Positions 7,453 through 19,848 of a stretch of 20,000 nucleotides of DNA are shown one piece after another. Position numbers and translations under genes: made by a program. Position 1 is the first letter of the stretch, and every line of letters begins with the position of its first letter. A model generated the notes under the pieces. It was not told where the DNA came from. It worked only from the letters and a program-made list of their open reading frames with translations, and searched no databases. Source of the stretch: an uncultured virus (IMG/VR IMGVR_UViG_3300037419_002114) (Duplodnaviria; Heunggongvirae; Uroviricota; Caudoviricetes); the IMG/VR virus record IMGVR_UViG_3300037419_002114, one strand, 5' to 3'.

Positions 7453-8577
7453 TTATTGGGTATTGAGGGAATATCCATAGTTAATACGATTGATAAGTTG
7501 GTCAAGTGGCGTAGGGGCTTTTGATTTACCGCTTCCCTTTGCTTTGTGAATTGCCCATTCTCTCTCTTCCGGTAAGATGATAAATGGCAAATCATCCGTA
7601 GGAGAAATATCAAGCGTCATTTTATATGAGCCGTTTCCATCAATCGTGTGCATATCGGTAATGATATAGTAAGGTCCGTATAGACCAGTAATCGGTTCGT
7701 TTACATACACGCTCTTGCCTGCTAAACATTCTTTCACGCCTAAACTATCGACCGATATGACGATATTAGGTCGTTTCATTTTCTCTAAAACAATGTTAGC
7801 GTGATGTTGAGCACGGTCATTTGGAATGCTTGTTCCGATTGATTCAATATGTTGCATTAAACCGAAGGCTGCAATGCTTTCTTCGTCTTTCGCAATCACA
7901 TACGAATACTTTCCAGTAGGAGAATCTTCGTTTCCTTGCGTTACTTTAATTTGGTTTCGCACTTCTTCGATATCGTAACTTGCGTTCACATGTTCGATAT
8001 TGTAGTTTGACTCTAACACATACGGAACAATTTGCTGAGAACGTTTTAATATGTTGACTTTTCCATCAATCGTTGGCATCCAAAAACTATCACCTGTTTC
8101 AAGACGAGTTTCCGTAAACAACTCTTGAGCCATATCCCAAATTGATTTTTCACGAATAATGTGCTTTGAAAAAACATACCCAGTATCATCAATTTGGCCT
8201 GTTGGAATGCCATATTCTCTACATAACTGTTCAATAAATTGGCTTGCCGTTTGCCCATTAACCACACGCGAATCTTCGTTGTTGGTTAGATACTTTCCTT
8301 CATCAAAAGCATCCATTTTCCCTGTTCCGTTTGTATCCATCTCTACTCGAAACACAACGCCACGAAACACTTCTTCGCCATCTAAAAAAAGAGAAAGCCT
8401 TTTCCCTGCTTGAAAGTTGAAAAGGCGTGTGTTCCATGTGTTCGGATCAATATTGGCATAGGTTACAGAAATTTTTCGAGCGGCTTGTTTTAAATCCCCA
8501 CTCCATTGAACGTTTTGAAGAAGTTGATCTAAATGATATTCAACTCCATCTTGGTAATAAACAACATCCACATTCAT
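7453..8577 (-). CDS. Baseplate hub protein, XkdQ/YqbQ-like
   Basis: Motifs VQWSGDLKQAARK, EVFRGVVF, DEESIAAFGLMQ and ITGLYGPYYIITDMHT; gene order. Confidence 0.88.
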   Translation of the reverse strand: MNVDVVYYQDGVEYHLDQLLQNVQWSGDLKQAARKISVTYANIDPNTWNTRLFNFQAGKRLSLFLDGEEVFRGVVFRVEMDTNGTGKMDAFDEGKYLTNNEDSRVVNGQTASQFIEQLCREYGIPTGQIDDTGYVFSKHIIREKSIWDMAQELFTETRLETGDSFWMPTIDGKVNILKRSQQIVPYVLESNYNIEHVNASYDIEEVRNQIKVTQGNEDSPTGKYSYVIAKDEESIAAFGLMQHIESIGTSIPNDRAQHHANIVLEKMKRPNIVISVDSLGVKECLAGKSVYVNEPITGLYGPYYIITDMHTIDGNGSYKMTLDISPTDDLPFIILPEEREWAIHKAKGSGKSKAPTPLDQLINRINYGYSLNTQ

Positions 8578-8587
8578 TCTAGCTCAC

Positions 8588-9487
8588 CTACCTCGTCAAC
8601 TTTGGCATAAACAAAAGTCCAGCGGAAATGATAGCCGTTGCGTGAACTGGATTTGTTTTGAGTCCGCTTAATGCTTGCATGCTTGCATAGTTATCAATCG
8701 CTTCTTGCACTTGTGCCGAAGTAGGAGTAGGAGGGGAAGTAATCACAGGTGCTGAAGGGGTCGGTGCAACATGTTCATACATCGTAGGCGGAACAGGTTC
8801 TGTTACCGTAATGGTGTGGGTCACTGTACCGTTTCCAATGCCAGGAATCGTCAACACTTGTCCGCTATAAATCACGTTCGGATTTTTAATCTTATCGGTG
8901 TTGGCGTTATAAATCGTAGGCCATTTTGTGGCATCGCCATAAAATCGCTTAGAAATTGCCCATAACGTATCGCCATTTTTTACCGTATACGTTCCGGCAA
9001 CTTGTTCGGTCACTGTACGAGTCACCGTTTTTGTGCCTGCTGGTGAGTACGTTCTCCAACGAAGAGGACGATACTGCTTAAAGGAAATATCGAAATACAC
9101 ATCACCTGGTTCTCCACCATTTTCATGATACGTAAACGAACGAACCGTAACAGGGAATGTGATATCGGTATTGGTGACCGTTAGATATAAAACCGTGGAA
9201 GCATGCATCCAGTTGATGATTTTATTTGTTGCATCATACGGTGCTAAAAAGTTTGGTGTATGGCAATAACTTGGATTGTAATCTCGTGGGAAGAAGGAAC
9301 TGAAGGACACCGAATATTGCTTCGGTGTTCCTGCAATCGTCACTTCACCATAGTTGACTACATTTATATCTTGAAACTGCGTGTCTTTGGTTACAGAAAA
9401 AGAAGAGGGATTGACAGGAAATAAAATCCTGTCATCCCCATTCGATAACCAAAATTGCATTTTTGGTTGAACTGGATACTGTATCAT
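8588..9487 (-). CDS. XkdP-like LysM-domain tail tube initiator protein
   Basis: Motifs FPVNPSS, FSSFFP, GDVYFDISFKQYR and LysM YTVKNGDTLWAISKRFYGDATKWPTIYNAN...IYSGQVLTIP. Follows the tape measure gene. Confidence 0.9.
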   Translation of the reverse strand: MIQYPVQPKMQFWLSNGDDRILFPVNPSSFSVTKDTQFQDINVVNYGEVTIAGTPKQYSVSFSSFFPRDYNPSYCHTPNFLAPYDATNKIINWMHASTVLYLTVTNTDITFPVTVRSFTYHENGGEPGDVYFDISFKQYRPLRWRTYSPAGTKTVTRTVTEQVAGTYTVKNGDTLWAISKRFYGDATKWPTIYNANTDKIKNPNVIYSGQVLTIPGIGNGTVTHTITVTEPVPPTMYEHVAPTPSAPVITSPPTPTSAQVQEAIDNYASMQALSGLKTNPVHATAIISAGLLFMPKLTR

Positions 9488-12400
9488 TATCCCATCAATC
9501 CTCCAGACACTTGAATTTCTCTTGCGAGTGCTCGTGCAATCTTATCGATATCCTCTTCGTTGCGAACGTTGAAGGTATTACCTGTTACGATAACGCCACC
9601 GCCTTCACCACTTGAAGCATTATTTCGATAGTTGCTTGCTGCCCCACGTGGTAGAATCATCTCATCTTTGTGGATGTAATGAAGTCCATCCGTAGGAACT
9701 CGCCACAATCCGCCTGCATTATGCGAAGGTGTTACGCCGCCTAATACATTGCCGACAACGTTTGTAACCGTACCGATAAATTGACCAATCGCACCGAAGA
9801 TGCCACCGCCACCACCGGAAATAGCAGGAATTGGAGCAGAGTTAATCGCTTGTGCTGCTGCGTTTTGTGTCGCTTGAATCACCTTTTGGTCACGTTGAGC
9901 AACCGCAGAACCAATTTGACTTCCAAGAACGTTTGCACCACTCGTTGCAGAAGTCGTAGACGACTGAACACTTGTCGTGATGTTATTAACATACTGCTGA
10001 AGCGTATTCTGAAGCGTAAACCCATCCTTTTGAACAGGAAGTCCGTTATTCATCAACTGTGCAATTGCCGCGTCTTGACGAGCCTTCGCTTCCGGAGCCA
10101 TTGCAAGCGGATGCTGAGGAGTTGGGTCGTATGCTCCGACTTTGTTTTTAATATACGTTTCCAACTGTTGCTGAACAATCAAATCGTCATTGAACGATGT
10201 GAACGGATTATGACCGTATTGAGCACGAGTAAACATCTTCGTAAACCACGATTGGTTCATGATGTTAGAAGGAGTATCGGCATTAGGGTCAGCCGCCTTC
10301 ATCACTTGTCCGCTACCTGTACCATATTTTTTAATATAGTTATCAGCAGTCATGGAGTTTTTAGCCATCGTGCGTTGAAGCATTGCATCTTTATCTTTTT
10401 GGGTACTTGTTGCAAGATTATTCATCGCAATGCCAGCCGCCTTTTGACCATCCCAAGCCGTAATTCCACCTAAGAGAAGATCAACGATCGGATTTCCAAG
10501 ACCTAAAAACGTACCTACTTTTCCAAGTTTACCAAAGAAAGAACCAGTACGAAGTGCTTTTGCTTCGATATTTGCATCTTCAAGTGCTTTAGCTTTAGCC
10601 GCATCTTGAAGTATTTTTTGTTGACGTGCTTCTTCCAAACTTACAACCTTACTAGAAGGTTTTGTTTCGGTTACCGTAGACGATTTCGGAATACCATTTT
10701 CTTTCGGTGTAGTTGTCTTGGTTGTTGAACCAAGTTTTGTTTCTTCCGCACCTACCGCCTTTGGAATGACTTCCTCAACTGCACCAGCACCTTTTAGTTT
10801 TTGAACAAGAGCACCACCTCCGTTTACGAGTCCAGAGATAAGCACAAAGTCTAAAAGAGTGTTTCCTAAATGCGACATATAACTTCCTGCATCGGTAGAA
10901 TCTTTCGGAGTAGCTGTGCCGTTAATCGCAAGTGTACCAAGCGTTCCTGCGATACCGCCTAGAAGGGCATTCGTAGTAGCGGTATTGGTTGCTACGGTGC
11001 TAACCGAATTAGAAACGGTAGCTGCCGCTTCAGTCGATGCAGCCTTGAAGCAATCGCAACATCCACACTCTGCAACTTGTCCGAGTGTTGGCCCGCCACC
11101 TTTCGGACTTCCGCCTGTTGGTGTTGTTCCACCACCGGGTCCAGAAGGAGGTGTCCATGTTGGAGGTTGTATGTTCATTTTCTTCGTTCCAAGAACTCGA
11201 CTCCATACATCCCAAGCATTTGTTAAAGCCGTAAGACCTGCGGTAACGAAACCTGCACCGAATAGAATCTCAACGACTCGACCAGTTCCGCCACTATCCC
11301 AAATGCCCTTCAGTGCTCCGATGATCGCATCGCCAATATCACCAAGCCACTCCTTGCCGTGTGCCTGCAATTCTTGACCAACCGCTTTAAAACCATCTTT
11401 CATAAGTCCTTTTAAGAAGTTGCCAAGAGCAGAAAGAATCGGTGCTCCAAACGTATCAAAAATGAACTTAAAACCATCAGCAAGGCTTTGACCCCACTCT
11501 TTTAGTTTCTCTTGGTTTCCTTTATCAGAAGCCCACTTTTTAATCGAATCTCCGATTACAGTTAAAGCCCCTTTAAACTTCCCACCAAGTGTAGTTGCGT
11601 TCTTAACAAGAGGGCTATTCGCAATGGTACTACCAAAATCACCGAACCATTTGCCAATCGCATTCCCAGCCTTTTGAATTTTTTCTTGGTTATCCAAAAG
11701 GAAGTTATTGATGACTTTAAACATATTGCTCAAAGGTGTTAAAAGCGGAGTGAAAAGGTTCACGCCAGTAATTTGCATTGCCGTTCCGAATTGCGATACA
11801 TCAAAACCAGTGGTCGATTGCATGTTCGAAAACATTTGGTCGAGTGTTTGCTTTTGAATGTTCGTTTCGAAATCTTTGATCGCTTGACCATTATTTTCAC
11901 CTTGATCAAACAATTGAGCAAACATACGAATCCCACGTGTACCACCGATGGTGTTAAACGCTTTATCCATCTCATCCGGTGCTAAATGGTTCTGTTCGAA
12001 TGTTTTACGAACAATGGTCGAAATGGTCTGCAAGTTTTTGAGTTCACCGTTTTGGTCATAGAAAATCGAACGACCATTCTTATCCAACCAATCTTGTTTA
12101 TTACCCTGGTCATCCGTGTAATGAAGAGATTTAAAGATGGCTTGTGCAGGTTTTGTCGAAGGCTGAAGCCTTTCCAGACCTACCTTTATGAGCGTTCCGG
12201 CATCTTGGCCTTTATATATACCCTTCTGACTCATGAGTCCAATCCATGCCGCGTTATCAAGGAAACTCATCCCTTGCTGAGCGGTAATGTTACCGGATTG
12301 CATCATACCTAATGCGATATCTTGTGGGTCGGTTACGGCTTGGTTCGAAACACCTGCGATAATGTTCGCAACCAATTCTGCACCGTTCATATTCTGTCCG

Positions 12401-13668
12401 CCCCAGTTCATACCGTTTTGCAGTTGTTTATCATGGTTGAACGTGGTAAGCATCGTAGCAATCAACTGACCGGATTTAACCGTATCAAAACCAGTTGCTT
12501 TCGAAAGTTCCATTGAGTTCATCAAAACGCCTTGCTTATAGTCGGAAGCAGAAGGAGCAAGTCCGTTTTTCGTACCTGTCATCTGATTAACAGAAATACC
12601 TGCTTTACCTAACTCTTGAACCGCTGCGAGTGTTTCATCAAGGCTAGAGCCTGTTTGAAGGGCAACGTTTCGAGTCAGCAAATCCAAAACTCCGCCACCA
12701 TTAGCATATTTTTGATCGCCTGCATCCAAAACCGTTCGAACGCCAGCGAGTCCTTTTTGATAATCAATGGCAGTCTTTAGTCCAGCAACTGTAAGTCCTG
12801 CCGTTGCAAACTCACCCATCCCTAAAATATTAGAAGGGGAAAGATATCCGCCTGCGGTTAATAGGTTTGTACTCGCTCCCACAATGGCATTTTTCGTGGT
12901 GTTAAATACACTTTTCACGCCACCTGTTCCGAGTTTTCCATAACTTTTTAAAAGAGTTGAACGTGCATCGTCAATCTCTTTATTTTGGCGGTTAATCTCC
13001 GAGTTCTGCCGAGAAACTGCAGACTTCTGTTGAATAAAATCACGATACGCATGAGAATATTCGCTATTATACGCCTGCAAGTCGTATCTACGTTGAGCCA
13101 AATCATCTCGAAATTGCATCGAGTTTGTTCGTGCATCGTAATAAGAAGCACGAGAATTGTTCAAGCCTACTCGTGAATTATTCAGTTGCTTATCGAGTTT
13201 CGCTTGTTGTTTCACGCCTGGAATAGACGCTTGAATCCGAGAAGCATTCGCAAGTTTTTCGGTTGCTTTCGCATCCTCAAGTTTTGCAGAAGTAACGGTT
13301 TTATACGCTTTCGCTTCTTCGTTTAAAAGTTTCGTACCGTTTTTAACGGTGTTCGTTAAAACCCGATCTTCCGTTTTTAATGCATCAGAGAGGGAGTTAA
13401 TAAGACCAGTGGTTTCTTTTAGTGACTTAATCATATTATTCATATAACCAAGTGACCCAGCACCGCCATATCCACCGCCGCCTAGAGCCGTACCGCCGGA
13501 CTTCATGACGTTCTTTTGTGCTTCTTCCATCAGCATTAACGCTTCGGTCGTCTTGTAAATCTGATCTTCAAACGCAATCAGTTTTGCAAGGGCTTTATCC
13601 ATTTTAGAAGAAAAGTCATCTTGAAGTTTGAGTGTTGCGGTTAAATCAAATCCACCCATTCCAGCCAC
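9487..13668 (-). CDS. Tail tape measure protein (1393 aa)
   Basis: Longest gene, after the chaperone. N-terminal LTATLKLQDDFS, TP901-type core (ELGKAGIS...GQDAGTLIK), C-terminal GGLWRVPTDG...HKDEMILP and NTFNVRNEEDIDKIA. GTG start follows RBS GAGGGGG. Confidence 0.93.
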   Translation of the reverse strand: MAGMGGFDLTATLKLQDDFSSKMDKALAKLIAFEDQIYKTTEALMLMEEAQKNVMKSGGTALGGGGYGGAGSLGYMNNMIKSLKETTGLINSLSDALKTEDRVLTNTVKNGTKLLNEEAKAYKTVTSAKLEDAKATEKLANASRIQASIPGVKQQAKLDKQLNNSRVGLNNSRASYYDARTNSMQFRDDLAQRRYDLQAYNSEYSHAYRDFIQQKSAVSRQNSEINRQNKEIDDARSTLLKSYGKLGTGGVKSVFNTTKNAIVGASTNLLTAGGYLSPSNILGMGEFATAGLTVAGLKTAIDYQKGLAGVRTVLDAGDQKYANGGGVLDLLTRNVALQTGSSLDETLAAVQELGKAGISVNQMTGTKNGLAPSASDYKQGVLMNSMELSKATGFDTVKSGQLIATMLTTFNHDKQLQNGMNWGGQNMNGAELVANIIAGVSNQAVTDPQDIALGMMQSGNITAQQGMSFLDNAAWIGLMSQKGIYKGQDAGTLIKVGLERLQPSTKPAQAIFKSLHYTDDQGNKQDWLDKNGRSIFYDQNGELKNLQTISTIVRKTFEQNHLAPDEMDKAFNTIGGTRGIRMFAQLFDQGENNGQAIKDFETNIQKQTLDQMFSNMQSTTGFDVSQFGTAMQITGVNLFTPLLTPLSNMFKVINNFLLDNQEKIQKAGNAIGKWFGDFGSTIANSPLVKNATTLGGKFKGALTVIGDSIKKWASDKGNQEKLKEWGQSLADGFKFIFDTFGAPILSALGNFLKGLMKDGFKAVGQELQAHGKEWLGDIGDAIIGALKGIWDSGGTGRVVEILFGAGFVTAGLTALTNAWDVWSRVLGTKKMNIQPPTWTPPSGPGGGTTPTGGSPKGGGPTLGQVAECGCCDCFKAASTEAAATVSNSVSTVATNTATTNALLGGIAGTLGTLAINGTATPKDSTDAGSYMSHLGNTLLDFVLISGLVNGGGALVQKLKGAGAVEEVIPKAVGAEETKLGSTTKTTTPKENGIPKSSTVTETKPSSKVVSLEEARQQKILQDAAKAKALEDANIEAKALRTGSFFGKLGKVGTFLGLGNPIVDLLLGGITAWDGQKAAGIAMNNLATSTQKDKDAMLQRTMAKNSMTADNYIKKYGTGSGQVMKAADPNADTPSNIMNQSWFTKMFTRAQYGHNPFTSFNDDLIVQQQLETYIKNKVGAYDPTPQHPLAMAPEAKARQDAAIAQLMNNGLPVQKDGFTLQNTLQQYVNNITTSVQSSTTSATSGANVLGSQIGSAVAQRDQKVIQATQNAAAQAINSAPIPAISGGGGGIFGAIGQFIGTVTNVVGNVLGGVTPSHNAGGLWRVPTDGLHYIHKDEMILPRGAASNYRNNASSGEGGGVIVTGNTFNVRNEEDIDKIARALAREIQVSGGLMG

Positions 13669-13685: not shown

Positions 13686-13910
13686 TTATTGTTTATTGCG
13701 TAACTGTTGCTTGCGTATCTCTTTTTGCCGTTTTTCAAATTCATCTTGTTCATCCTCCAACTGGGTGATCATCGATGCATAGATGAATCGCTTTTGTCCA
13801 TAGGGGAGGTTATAGATTTCATGGGGCAGAATGTGATGACGCTGAAAAATAATATGGAGCAGGCGTGCCTCTGGATCTGAGTCATCGCCTGCCCCCTTAA
13901 TTAGTCCTTT
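13686..13910 (-). CDS. -1 frameshift extension of the tail assembly chaperone (gpGT-like C-terminal part)
   Basis: The -1 frame overlapping the chaperone stop is open for 74 codons: KGLIKGAGDDSDPEARLLHIIFQRHHILPHEIYNLPYGQKRFIYASMITQLEDEQ...RNKQ*. It has no early start codon or RBS and fills the gap before the tape measure gene. Confidence 0.8.
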   Translation of the reverse strand, partial: KGLIKGAGDDSDPEARLLHIIFQRHHILPHEIYNLPYGQKRFIYASMITQLEDEQDEFEKRQKEIRKQQLRNKQ

Positions 13911-14290
13911 ATTTCGTCCTCACTGTCCGCATAGCCACTTAGTGCCATAATCTCTCCGGACAAACGAGAAATCTCACCTGGTAAGAATAGTTCCTGTACT
14001 GCATCAATGGCAGAACCATATTGTGCTACAATTTGCATATCATTGAGGTTAGGGTCAATGACACCATTTGCGATAATCAACATCCCAAATTGCACTTCAT
14101 CAAGTTGGCTTTCATTTTTCTTGCCTGGCACTGGGAATGTTGCTTGCTCACGAAGGCGTTGCAAAAGTTTGTAGTCAATCGACTGCAATTTAAAATCTGC
14201 ATCAAACCGTTTCATGTAGAATGTTTTGGTAGGTTTCGTTCCTCCAACTGCAAGCAGTTTGCTCAAAAGATCGTCATTTTTCTTAGTCAT
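13901..14290 (-). CDS. Tail assembly chaperone, XkdN-like
   Basis: Lies between tube and tape measure. Motifs IDPNLND and LFLPGEISRLSGEIMALSGY. RBS GGAGG. Confidence 0.88.
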   Translation of the reverse strand: MTKKNDDLLSKLLAVGGTKPTKTFYMKRFDADFKLQSIDYKLLQRLREQATFPVPGKKNESQLDEVQFGMLIIANGVIDPNLNDMQIVAQYGSAIDAVQELFLPGEISRLSGEIMALSGYADSEDEIKD

Positions 14291-14341
14291 CGTAATTTTC
14301 CTCCAAAGTTTTTCATAAGTTTTTGTTTTTTAGCATAATAT

Positions 14342-14370
14342 AAAAAAAGCAGGGGGCAATAAGCCCCCTT
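14342..14370 (-). terminator. Intrinsic terminator after the tail tube gene
   Basis: Minus strand AGGGGGC-TTATT-GCCCCCT followed by GCTTTTTTT. Confidence 0.8.
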
Positions 14371-14391
14371 TTAAATAAACGGTTATTCTTT

Positions 14392-15322
14392 TTATACAGG
14401 GCGAATCGTAGAAAGAAACTCGAAACTGTCGAAAGTGAACGGAAGTTCTTCTTTGACAATATCGCCAACAGTGAACTTCAACACGTCAATCTTGTCGAAA
14501 GACACGCCCTTCACACGAATGCGAAGCGATTGTCCGTTAGGCGAATCCGGGTCAGCAGCCGAGAAAATCAACTCGGTAACCCAAGGCTTTTTGGTATCGT
14601 CCATAACTTGGGCGATGTTTTCAAGGAACTCAGTCGTAACTTTATCTTTTCTACCCTGTCTTTCGACATATTTGCATAGGGAATAGACTATACCACACAC
14701 TCATTGAGTGTCCTCTTGGTAGTCGTTGGGGGCACGCCATTACGCTTATCCCTGCTGATTGTCCAATCCTAAGAATTTTTACACTTTGGTATCTTAGGCT
14801 CTAAGGAGTTTCCAGCATATTCGAGGTTTGCTATAAGCATCACTGCTTAAAGGGGCTATACGTTAACCCAGTTAAATGACCAGTTCCTTTAAAACCAACA
14901 ATCTTATTACCGATAGAACGTGTACCTGCACGTTTAATTTCGGTCTTTTGAAGGTCAACAGAGATTTCTCCACTGTCAGCATTCATCAACCATTGTCCAC
15001 CATAGTACACAGTAACGAAGTTCATTTTCTTTACGTTCTTGGCTTTTTATCCAAGACTCCTATACCTTCCTATTCGGTATAGATGAGCATACATTTTCAC
15101 CCTCGCCATTATGCGTTAGGGTGTCGAGCACTCGTGGAGAGATTATATTTATTCACTCTCTATGCGTTACACTGCTTTTACGCCTTTCGCTATCGTAAAA
15201 GTTAGCACGGTATTAGGAATCTCACCCTTCACCGTTTTTGCTCGATGATTATATAGATGCTTTCGCACCTACACGGCAACTGATTTACCGGAGATTACTT
15301 GAGAACCGTCTAAATATGCCAT
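14392..15322 (-). CDS. Tail tube protein (XkdM-like, 148 aa), split into three exons: 15322-15287, 15022-14866, 14645-14392
   Basis: ATG at 15322 follows RBS GGAAGGAG just after the sheath stop. Joined exons read MAYLDGSQVISG|NFVTVYYGGQW...KIVGFKGTGHLTG(Y)|KVTTEF...ADPDSPNG...EELPFTFDSFEFLSTIRPV. This restores the tube motifs VIxG, GTGxxTxYKV, DPD and ELPFTF. Confidence 0.92.
14646..14865 (-). ncRNA. Group I intron (220 nt, ORF-less), second intron of the tail tube gene
   Basis: 5' exon ends GGGU and pairs with the intron guide GCCC (U.G at the splice site); intron ends in G (AGAAAAG). Core elements: P AUAUGCUGGAAA, Q AAUCAGCAGG, R CAACGACUAC, S GGUAUAGUC. P7 GACUA/UAGUC, P3 CCUC/GAGG, P8 ACACUC/GAGUGU, P9 UGUC-GAAA-GACA. 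Phase-1 splicing creates the UAU (Tyr) codon of TGYKV. Confidence 0.92.
15023..15286 (-). ncRNA. Group I intron (264 nt, ORF-less, subgroup IA-like), first intron of the tail tube gene
   Basis: Junctions CCGGU^AAAUCAGUUGCCG ... AAAAUG^AACUUC. Guide AGUUGCCG pairs with the ligated junction CGGU|AACU over 8 bp including U.G. P3 UCGAGCA/UGCUCGA, P4 ACGGU/ACCGU, P7 GCAUA/UAUGC with J6/7 GUAAC, extra stem GAGAG/CUCUC between P7 and P3', P8 CACCCU/AGGGUG. Phase 0. Confidence 0.92.
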
Positions 15323-15340
15323 GGTCTATTCTCTCCTTCC

Positions 15341-16411
15341 TTATACGAAGATACTTAGGAATACTTGCTCAATCGAGTCAAGTTCTAAGTAACTCACTGT
15401 GATATAAAGTTGATCGCCAACAGATTGCTCAGTCTTATCAACACCAACTTGAATGTTCGTCAGCACTTCTGCTGCTTGAAGGGATTCAAGATAGAGTTTA
15501 ACCATCGATTGAACATAAGCCGCTCCGTTGCTATCGTTTGTGATTTGTCCGATAACGGATGCTTCAACAGAACGAGTGATCGAAGTGGAAACCGTTTGGC
15601 GAACTTTCTCTTTACGAATTTTCGTAAGATTAGTTGTGATGCCTTGCTCAAGTCGTACAAACTCGCCATTGTTTACAAGCACCAAAGAACCGTTTGCAAC
15701 TGCATTTTTAATGTCAGAGATTGCAAGGCGTTTGGTTACATCGTCAACAGGCAACTTGAGGAACGTGATGCTTTTTTGGAGAGGGCAAGAAGCAACTGCA
15801 CCAGCAACATAACTTGCGAATTGTGCAGAGTTCTGAGTTACTCCATCAGTTACAACACCACTGATAAGGTTTAATACATAGTCATCTTTCACACGAACAC
15901 TGCGAGCATTACCAATCGAAGGGTCAAGGTCATCAGCCGCTACTACACAACCAACTACTGCGAAGTAGTGTTTGCCAAGGTCACGATTTTGTTTTACCCA
16001 ACGAACGCAGTCGTCTTGTTCTGTTGCAGATACGATACCATCGTATGCGAACACATCGAAGTTATAGGTGTCAAGCACCGCACGAGCGTCATCATACGCA
16101 ATCTTTTCGGTTACAGTCGTACCATCGATTGCTTCAAGCGTATACACAAGAACTTGAGCAGCCCCTGCGGATAGAGCGTTTTTAATCGATTGAACGTTAG
16201 CCGCTCCGAACGTATTTTCTGCAGTGGTAATGTCATTGATTGTATAAACAGTTTTTGCGGTTGCAGTTCCGTATGTCACCAAAGGGATAGCGACAACCCC
16301 ACGACTTGCTACAGTCGAAGAAACCTGTGCATTTGCTAGGGAAGTAAAGCGAACATACAAACCTGGAAGGGTATTACTTGCATTAGATGTTGGATCCCAT
16401 GTTCCAGCCAC
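15341..16411 (-). CDS. Contractile tail sheath protein (XkdK-like, compact 356 aa)
   Basis: N-terminal LPGLYVRF...RGVVAIP, YVAGAVA...SITF, LEQGITT...KIRK, YLESLQ and C-terminal DSIEQVFL. Precedes the tube gene. Confidence 0.9.
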   Translation of the reverse strand: MAGTWDPTSNASNTLPGLYVRFTSLANAQVSSTVASRGVVAIPLVTYGTATAKTVYTINDITTAENTFGAANVQSIKNALSAGAAQVLVYTLEAIDGTTVTEKIAYDDARAVLDTYNFDVFAYDGIVSATEQDDCVRWVKQNRDLGKHYFAVVGCVVAADDLDPSIGNARSVRVKDDYVLNLISGVVTDGVTQNSAQFASYVAGAVASCPLQKSITFLKLPVDDVTKRLAISDIKNAVANGSLVLVNNGEFVRLEQGITTNLTKIRKEKVRQTVSTSITRSVEASVIGQITNDSNGAAYVQSMVKLYLESLQAAEVLTNIQVGVDKTEQSVGDQLYITVSYLELDSIEQVFLSIFV

Positions 16412-18461: not shown

Positions 18462-19848
18462 TTAAGAAACAGTTGTAGAAACGTTCTCGATGATGGCTAC
18501 TTTCTCTTTAGCGTTCTTCACGCGAAGACCGTATTCACCACGAATTTGACGAGCAACAAAGTCAGCCATTTTCTTTACGTTCTTGGCTTTTTATCCAAGA
18601 CTCCTATACCTTCTTATTCAGTATAGATGAGCATACATTTTCACCTTCAACTTGACTTGGTAAGGTGTCGAGCACTCGTGGGTTCATTATATTCTCTTGC
18701 GAGGTTCAGAACCTATGCGTTACGGTGAGCCACATCTATTACAATGTGCTTTACCTCGGTATTAGCATCTCAGCCTTCACCGATATTGCTCGATAATAAC
18801 ATAGATAATTTCTTACCTAAGCGGCAACTGATTTACCTGGGATCGATGCGTCAACGTCATACAATTGACGACCTTGAAGTGGAGCGAACTCAAGGATGTT
18901 GCGGTCAAACAGAACGATTTTATCTTTCGGCATGTTAGGGTCAACAACCAATACCGCTTCTCCGCCACCGATCATGTCGGAAACGATGGTGCTGATTTGG
19001 TGACCTGTTGCAGAATCCGTTCTTTGCGTACGGATAGCAGCATCTGCCATTTTGGAGATTTGACGAGCACCAGCCGTGTTAGTCAAGATGGTGTTAGCCA
19101 TTCCGCCCCTTTTGAAAATTTCTTCGAAAAGATCGTTAACGCCCTTAGCAGAAAGTTCTGCACCACCGTTGTTTACTTTGAAAGATCCTTCAAGGTTAGC
19201 GAAGTTCAAAAGTCCGCCAGTCATACGAGGTGCACCTGCACCAGCATCGATTCTACGTCCGTAGATGATGGAATCGTTCATCTCACGAGCAAGTTCTTTC
19301 AAACGAAGTTGAACTTGGTAGTTCAGTTCATCGCCAACGTTGTATACATTTGTGTGCATACGAGTGTTGGTAACAGAAGCGTAACGTTCGAAGATTTGAG
19401 TGTAGTTGAACTGTACCAAACGGTCATGTCCTTCGTCCACTCCAGGCATTGCACCCTCAAGTTGAGGACGAGCAACAATGCGAAGTTCATCGCCTGCATT
19501 ACCTGATACTGCAGTCGTTCCATCGAAACCACGAACAACTGTGATTTGGTCACCGTTTACTGCGGTTACTTTCATATACTCATCGCCAAAAACTAAAACG
19601 GCATTCACACGGAATTTACCGCCATCGCCAGCAATAAGTGTAATCGTAGTATCGCCAGCCGCGAAAGAAGCGGAAGCATTTGCACGATTAGAATTCAAAT
19701 GGTCTTGCATCCACTCAAATTTGGTCTGAGTGTGTGGTACTCCGTTAAGACCGATAAGACCAAGCAAAATAGGTGCATCGTTGATAATCAACGAGATACC
19801 TGCTTCGAGGTCGCGAATTTGGTCTTGGAAATCATAAGACTTTAACAT
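18462..19848 (-). CDS. Major capsid protein (SU10/DUF5309-like, 372 aa), split into exons 19848-18835 and 18566-18462
   Basis: RBS AAAGGGGAG. Motifs KFEWMQD, NYTQIF, ELNYQV...KELAREM and RMTGGL. Exon 2 supplies ADFVARQIRGEYGLRVKN...TTVS*, carrying the conserved GEYxL capsid C-terminal motif, and is followed by a terminator. Confidence 0.92.
18567..18834 (-). ncRNA. Group I intron (268 nt, ORF-less, subgroup IA-like) in the major capsid gene
   Basis: Junctions CCAGGU^AAAUCAGUUGCCG ... AAAAUG^GCUGAC. P1 GGU/GCC with U.G, P10 UCAGU/GCUGA, P3 UCGAGCA/UGCUCGA, P4 UCGGU/ACCGA, P7 GCAUA/UAUGC, extra stem GGUUC/GAACC, P8 CACCUU/AAGGUG. Phase-0 splicing restores the reading frame. Confidence 0.92.

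Follow-up and report, generated by a model that had tools for sequence, protein, structure and literature searches.

Two probable group I introns of different families in the tail tube gene of an uncultured contractile-tailed phage, with a natural allele series

The window analysed here is a 20,000-nt stretch of DNA from an uncultured virus (IMG/VR record IMGVR_UViG_3300037419_002114), and the element under study is its XkdM-type tail tube gene, which lies on the minus strand. To judge from the sequence, this gene is very probably interrupted by two unrelated, self-splicing group I introns that carry no open reading frame (ORF). The gene consists of an exon of 36 nt, an intron of 264 nt, an exon of 157 nt, an intron of 220 nt and an exon of 254 nt, which gives 447 coding nt and 484 intron nt, and the spliced product would have 148 aa. 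An earlier note on this DNA had read the same 36/157/254 split with 484 nt of intron, and coordinates and lengths bear it out exactly; the coordinate 14646 in that note is the last base of intron 2, and exon 3 continues to 14392. The parts of the gene and the signals at its start are as follows.

15322..15287, minus strand: tube exon 1, 36 nt, MAYLDGSQVISG; its 3' end reads ...CGGU, and this U pairs with a guide G
15286..15023, minus strand: intron 1, 264 nt, putative group I, phase 0, no ORF
15022..14866, minus strand: tube exon 2, 157 nt, NFVTVYYGG...GHLTG plus the first base of Tyr65
14865..14646, minus strand: intron 2, 220 nt, putative group I, phase 1, no ORF
14645..14392, minus strand: tube exon 3, 254 nt including the TAA stop (14394..14392)
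15331..15337, minus strand: tube ribosome binding site AGGAGAG, 8 nt 5' of the tube ATG
15343..15341, minus strand: TAA stop of the sheath gene, just upstream of the tube ribosome binding site

Exon junctions and the spliced tube protein

Exact removal of the introns restores a frame that is colinear with intron-less homologues, and this holds for both tube introns and for a third intron, found in the major capsid gene of the same phage. The tube exons pass the Pfam DUF2001 profile (PF09393, XkdM-type tail tube, cut-off 27 bits), with 50.2 bits for exon 3 and 33.2 bits for exon 2. On this profile exon 2 takes positions 15-62 and exon 3 positions 65-138, so that they adjoin; the gap between the two matches exists because a Tyr codon is split. 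In tblastn, exon 3 matched 11 phage records; its protein search against longer proteins gave no match. Two of the phages hit by both exons place them exactly one codon apart, namely the Bacillus phage BalMu-1 (exon 2 at 24729-24884, exon 3 at 24888-25121) and MRSA107 (8029-8172 and 8176-8409). The XkdM gene of BalMu-1 starts 33 nt 5' of its exon 2 match, which fits a first exon of 12 codons. The spliced protein is colinear, in one piece, with all eight uninterrupted tube loci compared (L004, L005, L006, L009, L010, L011, L012 and L014); in L005 the alignment runs from residue 1 to 145 over 145 columns, and the N-terminus there is MAPLDSTRVISG. It falls into three pieces only against the two close relatives of the window, L007 and L008 (the latter is the same record as G001 below), and L013 contributed just an 18-residue fragment.

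The strongest evidence for a junction is a 919-nt DNA contig from soil run X9, in which 14442-15020 is joined directly to 15285-15500. The 264 nt left out, placed with an ambiguity of 2 nt, are exactly intron 1; the same contig is unbroken through intron 2. Further scans added no alleles: the genome contigs yielded one distant uninterrupted tube gene (L014) only, and the metagenome contigs three. An N-terminal intron had been suspected in L014 and L010, where tblastn starts at residue 21, and was rejected, as no Rfam match was found and the ORF is uninterrupted in L010 and, at 148 aa, in L014.

Splicing might not be needed at all if the tube protein were made from the ATG that ends intron 1 (N-terminus MAYLDGSQVISGNFV...), or if the pieces were made as separate peptides. 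From the tube ATG at 15322 the unspliced RNA holds only 17 open codons, MAYLDGSQVISGKSVAV followed by a stop, and the ATG at 15025..15023 does open a frame of 137 aa, provided that intron 2 is removed. Such a product would thus still require splicing of intron 2, and it would be without the conserved N-terminal 12 residues, including the invariant G12. The 20 nt before this ATG (AAGCCAAGAACGTAAAGAAA) hold no Shine-Dalgarno sequence, and the true start has AGGAGAG. These three bases, the last of intron 1 and in frame with the downstream exon, are also the last three bases of the paralogous capsid intron, and the ATG is a property of the intron because the paralogue ends in the same way; the intron-1-less allele has no such ATG. 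We consider this explanation scarcely credible, and translation from an internal start without splicing, which the earlier note had named as one of two refuting cases, is not favoured.

Structure and relatives of the introns

In both tube introns the 5' splice site follows a U held in a U-G wobble, and the last base is G. P1 of intron 1 is CGGU/AA (the slash marks the splice site) with the guide UUGCCG and the terminal G at 15023; P1 of intron 2 is GGGU/UA with the guide UAGCCC and the terminal G at 14646. Both introns have a conserved P3-P9 core with a P3/P7 pseudoknot, backed by covariation. In intron 1, by hand reading, P2 is UAGGUGC-GAAA-GCAUCUA and is followed by P3, P4, P5 and P6/6a. Intron 2 has P2, P3, P4, P5/P5a and P6 in turn; only CCAA separates its P7 from P3' (GAGG), and P9 has a GAAA-capped arm.

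15279..15274, minus strand: intron 1 guide UUGCCG
15271..15269, minus strand: intron 1 in-frame UAG, first bases of P2
15245..15240 / 15129..15124, minus strand: intron 1 P3
15165..15161 / 15091..15087, minus strand: intron 1 P7, GCAUA/UAUGC
15160..15156 / 15141..15137, minus strand: intron 1 P7.1, GAGAG...CUCUC, hairpin between P7 and P3'
15122..15118 / 15103..15099, minus strand: intron 1 P8
15081..15076 / 15066..15061, minus strand: intron 1 P9
15056..15051 / 15042..15037, minus strand: intron 1 P9.1
14858..14853, minus strand: intron 2 guide UAGCCC
14842..14840, minus strand: intron 2 in-frame UGA, P2 loop
14826..14823 / 14715..14712, minus strand: intron 2 P3, CCUC/GAGG, 4 bp
14817..14812 / 14758..14753, minus strand: intron 2 P4
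14798..14792 / 14774..14768, minus strand: intron 2 P5a
14724..14720 / 14690..14686, minus strand: intron 2 P7, GACUA/UAGUC
14711..14706 / 14702..14697, minus strand: intron 2 P8
14660..14654, minus strand: intron 2 P9 3' strand

For intron 1, we aligned nine sequences: the window, the capsid paralogue and seven relatives found by blastn (cr6_1, MT835539, Lbo-JY46, pCD1602_4, cr131_1, PJN02 and Sau-SA2). Of 437 cells, 97.7% are paired, compared with 34-46% when the 3' partners are slid by 1-3 columns; compensatory change occurs in 33 of 50 pairs, and none of 500 shuffles reaches the observed values. All five pairs of P7.1 covary, so the extra stem before P3', which the earlier note had seen together with P7 GCAUA/UAUGC, is confirmed as a hairpin; a small extra hairpin lies inside the P7.1 loop in three of the nine sequences. 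Contigs in runs X3, X8 and X9 match only 15060-15099 of intron 1.

Intron 2 represents a very common type. Its P7-P3'-P8-P7' pattern matched at least 114 stretches in viral contigs, and the CCAA-type spacing without a stem between P7 and P3' is common to this whole compact family. P7 GACUA/UAGUC running almost directly into P3', and phase 1, can be read in the sequence as the earlier note had described. Among the pattern matches listed, P3 was examined in 76 distinct sequences (75 loci and the window), and 58 of them have both flanking motifs; the other 18 have no upstream motif in the 190 nt extracted, and the better of two upstream motifs was used in 16 cases. The 4 nt before GAAUAU and the 4 nt after GACUACCAA are fully complementary in 52 of the 58, with 26 distinct P3/P3' combinations. 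An alignment of 33 sequences, made of the window and 32 of 66 candidate loci with 68-124 nt between the motifs (the near-identical L058 was excluded), is 90.1% paired, compared with 31-44% when slid, and 23 of 32 pairs show compensatory change. P9 is weaker in this family (68-73% paired), because several members have another P9 design. A contig of 23,441 nt in run X8, which belongs to another organism, shares with intron 2 just its final 49 nt (14644-14692, the P9 region), and other members of these communities carry relatives of both intron families.

Intron 1 has a sister copy in the major capsid gene, with the following parts.

18835..19848, minus strand: major capsid exon 1, 338 aa, Pfam SU10_MCP at 190.4 bits, also found by tblastn
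18834..18567, minus strand: capsid intron, 268 nt, phase 0, paralogue of intron 1
18462..18566, minus strand: major capsid exon 2, 34 aa and stop, SU10_MCP profile positions 265-291

The copy shares with intron 1 the guide UUGCCG and a sequence identity of 76%, and an in-frame UAG stands at its intron nt 16-18 (KSVAA and stop). After splicing the capsid protein would have 372 aa; its alignment with the uninterrupted MRSA107 gene is gap-free at 67.7%, and the protein also aligns to phage KLEB27-1 across the DASIPG/ADFVARQIRGEYG junction (DASIPG/ADFVAR). The two copies form a mosaic: the last 73 aligned columns (15023-15095 and 18567-18639) are 97% identical and include a perfect run of 47 nt, and the centre (P6, P7.1 and P8) is just 50-58% identical. 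This pattern suggests either gene conversion between the copies within the genome or a swapped core.

Several points weigh against the identification of the tube introns as working group I introns. The RF00028 gathering score of 50 bits is reached by neither of them; whole-window Rfam scans gave no match at the gathering score and none at E <= 0.01, and the capsid intron had no RF00028 match even in a 551-nt scan. When only 14300-15450 (1.15 kb) was scanned, both tube introns gave full-model matches to RF00028, at 35.8 bits (E 3.2e-07) for intron 1 and 35.0 bits (E 5.5e-07) for intron 2. As the cut-off is not reached, the identification rests on structure and covariation. There, the alignment members were chosen by the author, the P7 of intron 2 is invariant by construction of the search pattern, and the structures were drawn from the window sequences, which favours the unslid register. 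At least six rows of the intron 2 alignment start at a wrong upstream motif, and their effect is to lower the covariation counts, not to raise them. In addition, intron 2 has a P3 of just 4 bp and, when read by hand, a weak P10, and the 24 sequencing runs listed for this locus include no RNA run. Rfam gave only four matches, in three loci, across 14 relatives' loci, and the families were therefore aligned by hand-chosen anchors; RF00028 is passed by three relatives of intron 2, namely the alternative intron of G001 (81.4 bits), L017 (78.8 bits) and L018 (59.9 bits). A 2025 survey remarks that the old subgroups accommodate phage introns badly and that the Rfam and GISSD models detect too few of them (PMC11878797).

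The scores below threshold and the short P3 of intron 2 could also mean that one or both introns are decayed relics which no longer splice, the gene being a pseudogene in a defective prophage or in a tail-like particle. We regard this as very improbable. All core helices are intact and covary with the relatives; the differences between intron 1 and its capsid copy are compensatory in P2, P5, P7.1 and P8. All three exons and every neighbouring late gene are open, and three separate records as well as several runs from soil and rhizosphere contain the element.

Two unrelated introns, rather than two copies of one, are what the comparisons point to. In global alignment intron 1 and intron 2 are no more alike than shuffles (z 0.2), whereas intron 1 and the capsid intron give z 38, and intron 2 and the alternative intron of G001 give z 7.7. 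The blastn relatives form separate sets, with crAss-like, Leptolyngbya, Clostridioides, Staphylococcus and Bacillus phages for intron 1, and Lak, Bacillus WH1, Acinetobacter, Pseudomonas KIL phages for intron 2. The guides (GCCG and GCCC) and the phases (0 and 1) differ, as the earlier note had stated, and its placing of both introns at conserved tube motifs is likewise upheld: at site 1, G12 is invariant in nine of nine aligned tube proteins, and site 2 lies in the motif GTG..GYKVT.

Subgroup IA is defined by the extra pairings P7.1/P7.2 between P7 and P3', and these pairings have been named as class features (PMC3984707). A stem between the P7 5' strand and P3' is present in intron 1, as one hairpin, and absent from intron 2. 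In its P1-P6 half, intron 2 shares 78-85% identity with td-like introns from phages of Acinetobacter and Pseudomonas (RF00028 78.8 and 59.9 bits), which have about 35-47 nt of stems between P7 and P3'; given this likeness, intron 2 looks like a compact offshoot of td-like introns and is not alien to IA. The earlier idea of two different introns with independent histories is thus retained on the strength of z 0.2, the separate relatives and the separate variation of the sites, but with the amendment that intron 2 is close to IA. In one of the td-like relatives, Acinetobacter phage YMC13/03/R2096, a second partial RF00028 match of 40 bits (L017 771-923) lies about 120 nt past the first intron and next to an HNH endonuclease gene, and the two may be tandem introns.

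Allele series and proposed working

The nearest record, G001, is about 98% identical to the window in the flanks, and its intron 1 (264 nt) and capsid intron are identical to those of the window, with 0 differences. It has no intron at the window's site 2 (after coding sequence (CDS) nt 193). An alternative intron of 265 nt (RF00028 81.4 bits) stands instead after CDS nt 166, in phase 1 within Phe56; by hand comparison with the td sequence it is probably td-like.

L001 1234-1498, minus strand: G001 alternative intron, 27 nt upstream of the window's intron 2 site

The spliced genes of both are 447 nt long, and their proteins differ at 2 residues. Among 37 nt differences, 25 fall within CDS nt 125-200 (76 nt) and are all synonymous; the remainder are distributed as 0 in nt 1-124 and 12 in nt 201-447. 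To us this clustered synonymous tract looks like exon co-conversion from a diverged donor. Neither allele has the GGGU target of the other's intron. Run X5 contains both the G001-type junction and the window-type intron 2 junction, and the alleles therefore co-occur; stretches without cover in runs X3, X5 and X8 were not counted as evidence. At the other site, the X9 allele without intron 1 has no flank differences nearby. As read from these sequences, the series supports an independent gain or loss at each of the two tube sites.

It could be asked whether the two introns, both real, arrived together through recombination of the whole tube gene or of a large segment. Phage late genes are mosaic, and L007, which has the window's architecture, is 96.6% identical to it over 4.6 kb, but a single difference is found in the 931 positions of the tube gene with its introns; this region can therefore sweep or be transferred as one unit. 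The tube gene region of L007 is indeed far more uniform with respect to the window than its surroundings. However, each site varies alone among near-identical genomes, with X9 lacking intron 1 only and G001 differing around site 2 only, and the two introns are unrelated and have different relatives. Joint arrival is thus quite unlikely in our judgement, and we keep to separate entries.

We propose the following working for the locus. In each intron the guide would pair with the last bases of the exon before it (CGGU/GCCG in intron 1, GGGU/GCCC in intron 2), each intron would fold its P3-P9 core and end in G, and both would have to leave the late mRNA for the 148-aa tube protein to be made. That all three ORF-less introns splice themselves out of the late transcript is inferred, and so are the way they move and whatever influence ribosomes have on their folding. 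On unspliced RNA, translation would stop 18 nt into intron 1 or 26 nt into intron 2, within P1/P2 and before the catalytic core. The stops are a UAG at nt 16-18 in intron 1 and in the capsid intron, a UGA at nt 24-26 in intron 2, and a UAA straddling the 5' splice site in the G001 intron; the read-through peptide KSVAV, ending at the in-frame UAG just inside intron 1, is present as the earlier note had read it. The two tube introns would have entered the gene separately; intron 1 belongs to the P7.1-hairpin family and has its sister in the capsid gene of the same phage, and intron 2 belongs to the very common compact family without a P7-P3' stem.

In T4 introns, a link between translation and splicing was reportedly described by Semrad & Schroeder in 1998 and by Sandegren & Sjoberg in 2007. 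It is generally found in such introns that an early in-frame stop halts ribosomes within P1/P2 (PMC2504315, PMC3984707), and since the stops found here match this published generalisation, the idea that translation may be coupled to splicing is reasonable, but not new. Both virion genes would depend on splicing of late RNA, so the locus, with its first exon of 12 codons, could be convenient for testing the ribosome-stop idea. Skipping of exon 2, also considered in the earlier note, was rejected as a productive route, the product being a frameshifted 37 aa. Exon skipping has been published for tandem group I introns flanking exons of 23 and 34 nt (PMC10136302); here exon 2 has 157 nt, and the introns and guides differ.

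The introns may move by recombination between co-infecting phages, by a trans-acting endonuclease or, for the spread from tube to capsid (AUCUCCGGU, AUCCCAGGU), by reverse splicing. No endonuclease ORF lies inside the introns (264, 220 and 268 nt), where the only sense ORF of at least 30 aa has 33 aa (15268..15167), and neither the 17 large ORFs of the window nor the 7 profile-search queries revealed an endonuclease gene. A bolder proposal, to which we attach only a small probability, is that the GFKGTGHLTGY stretch is a contested landing zone in which introns exclude each other without endonucleases, combined with a jump of intron 1 between tube and capsid genes that conserved its guide. If so, two ORF-less lineages that share the target GGGU would occupy alternative sites, separated by 27 nt, in phages that co-occur and are 98% identical; the synonymous recoding of each allele's tract would abolish the GGGU needed by the other intron (GGU in one case, GGA-U in the other); and the jump would join the sites AUCUCCGGU and AUCCCAGGU, as expected for reverse splicing.

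Genome setting and comparison with known systems

Every gene of the window is encoded on the minus strand, and together they make up the late gene block of a phage with a contractile tail. The order is major capsid (Pfam SU10_MCP), ORFs of head-tail connector size, sheath (15341..16411), tube, XkdN-like chaperone (13901..14290), tape measure (9487..13668), LysM protein, YQBQ-like protein, sheath initiator, baseplate J, Mu gp48-like protein and amidase, so that the tube gene stands between those for the sheath and the chaperone. The source is an uncultured PBSX/Mu-like myophage whose closest isolates are Brevibacillus and Bacillus phages, and it occurs in soil and rhizosphere metagenome runs. 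A terminator-like hairpin, GGGGGC-UUAU-UGCCCCC with a U run, lies at 14342-14368 (minus strand) between the tube stop and the chaperone gene, and it would allow an excess of sheath and tube over the downstream products. For annotation, the consequence of the introns is that gene callers will report a 102-aa tail of the tube protein (ORF 14392..14700) and a truncated capsid gene.

The closest precedent comes from prophages of the Bacillus cereus group (Tourasse & Kolsto 2008, PMC2504315). A group I intron in a tail tube gene is described there for prophage BwK1 of B. weihenstephanensis KBAB4 (pBWB401) and for a prophage of B. cereus B4264, and the introns TMP-IVS1/2/3 are described in prophages of the group. 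Like the window, these prophages have introns in Bacillota tail genes, at conserved sites and with stops within the first 27 nt in P1/P2; they also have several introns in one tail gene, there the tape measure gene, as well as about 80%-identical paralogous introns at different sites, and classes IA1/IA2 related to introns of other phages. A prophage tail tube intron, several introns per tail gene and paralogous introns at different sites are thus already in print. The tube gene of the window differs from that of BwK1, as published, in having two unrelated introns where BwK1 has one, and from the B. cereus-group case in its natural allele series, with and without intron 1 and with alternative introns 27 nt apart. 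A plasmid search with a B. cereus-group XkdM-like tube protein gave 28 records, all uninterrupted and none from pBWB401.

A phage gene that holds more than one self-splicing group I intron, with short exons before or between the introns, is also known from Staphylococcus phage Twort, whose orf142 has three such introns and undergoes exon skipping (Landthaler & Shub 1999, via PMC10136302). There, a 23-nt exon lies between introns 2 and 3, two IA2 introns that closely resemble each other, and skipping was observed; here the introns are unrelated, the exon has 157 nt and skipping would shift the frame. Cluster J mycobacteriophages resemble our phage in having introns spliced from the major capsid gene and a tail gene within one phage group (Pope et al. 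2013, PMC3706429), but theirs is a siphovirus of another host phylum.

The td, nrdB and sunY introns of T4 share with ours their place in phage protein genes and an in-frame stop soon after the 5' splice site, where ribosomes are thought to help or hinder folding (PMC3984707). The T4 introns carry or once carried endonuclease genes and sit in nucleotide-metabolism genes, whereas those of the window are ORF-less and sit in virion genes. Collaborative homing, in which ORF-less introns are moved with free-standing endonucleases (PMC3984707), is a further likeness: the introns of the window are ORF-less with signs of movement, and the co-conversion-like tract by site 2 would fit double-strand break repair. 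It is also a contrast, in that no endonuclease gene was found here among the 17 large ORFs, with the 7 queries or in the introns. Against this published background, what the window adds is the allele series, together with the lesson that default Rfam misses all three of its introns. With intron 1 present or absent, intron 2 or another intron 27 nt away, and a sister copy in the capsid gene, the series could serve to probe how introns move and compete without endonucleases.

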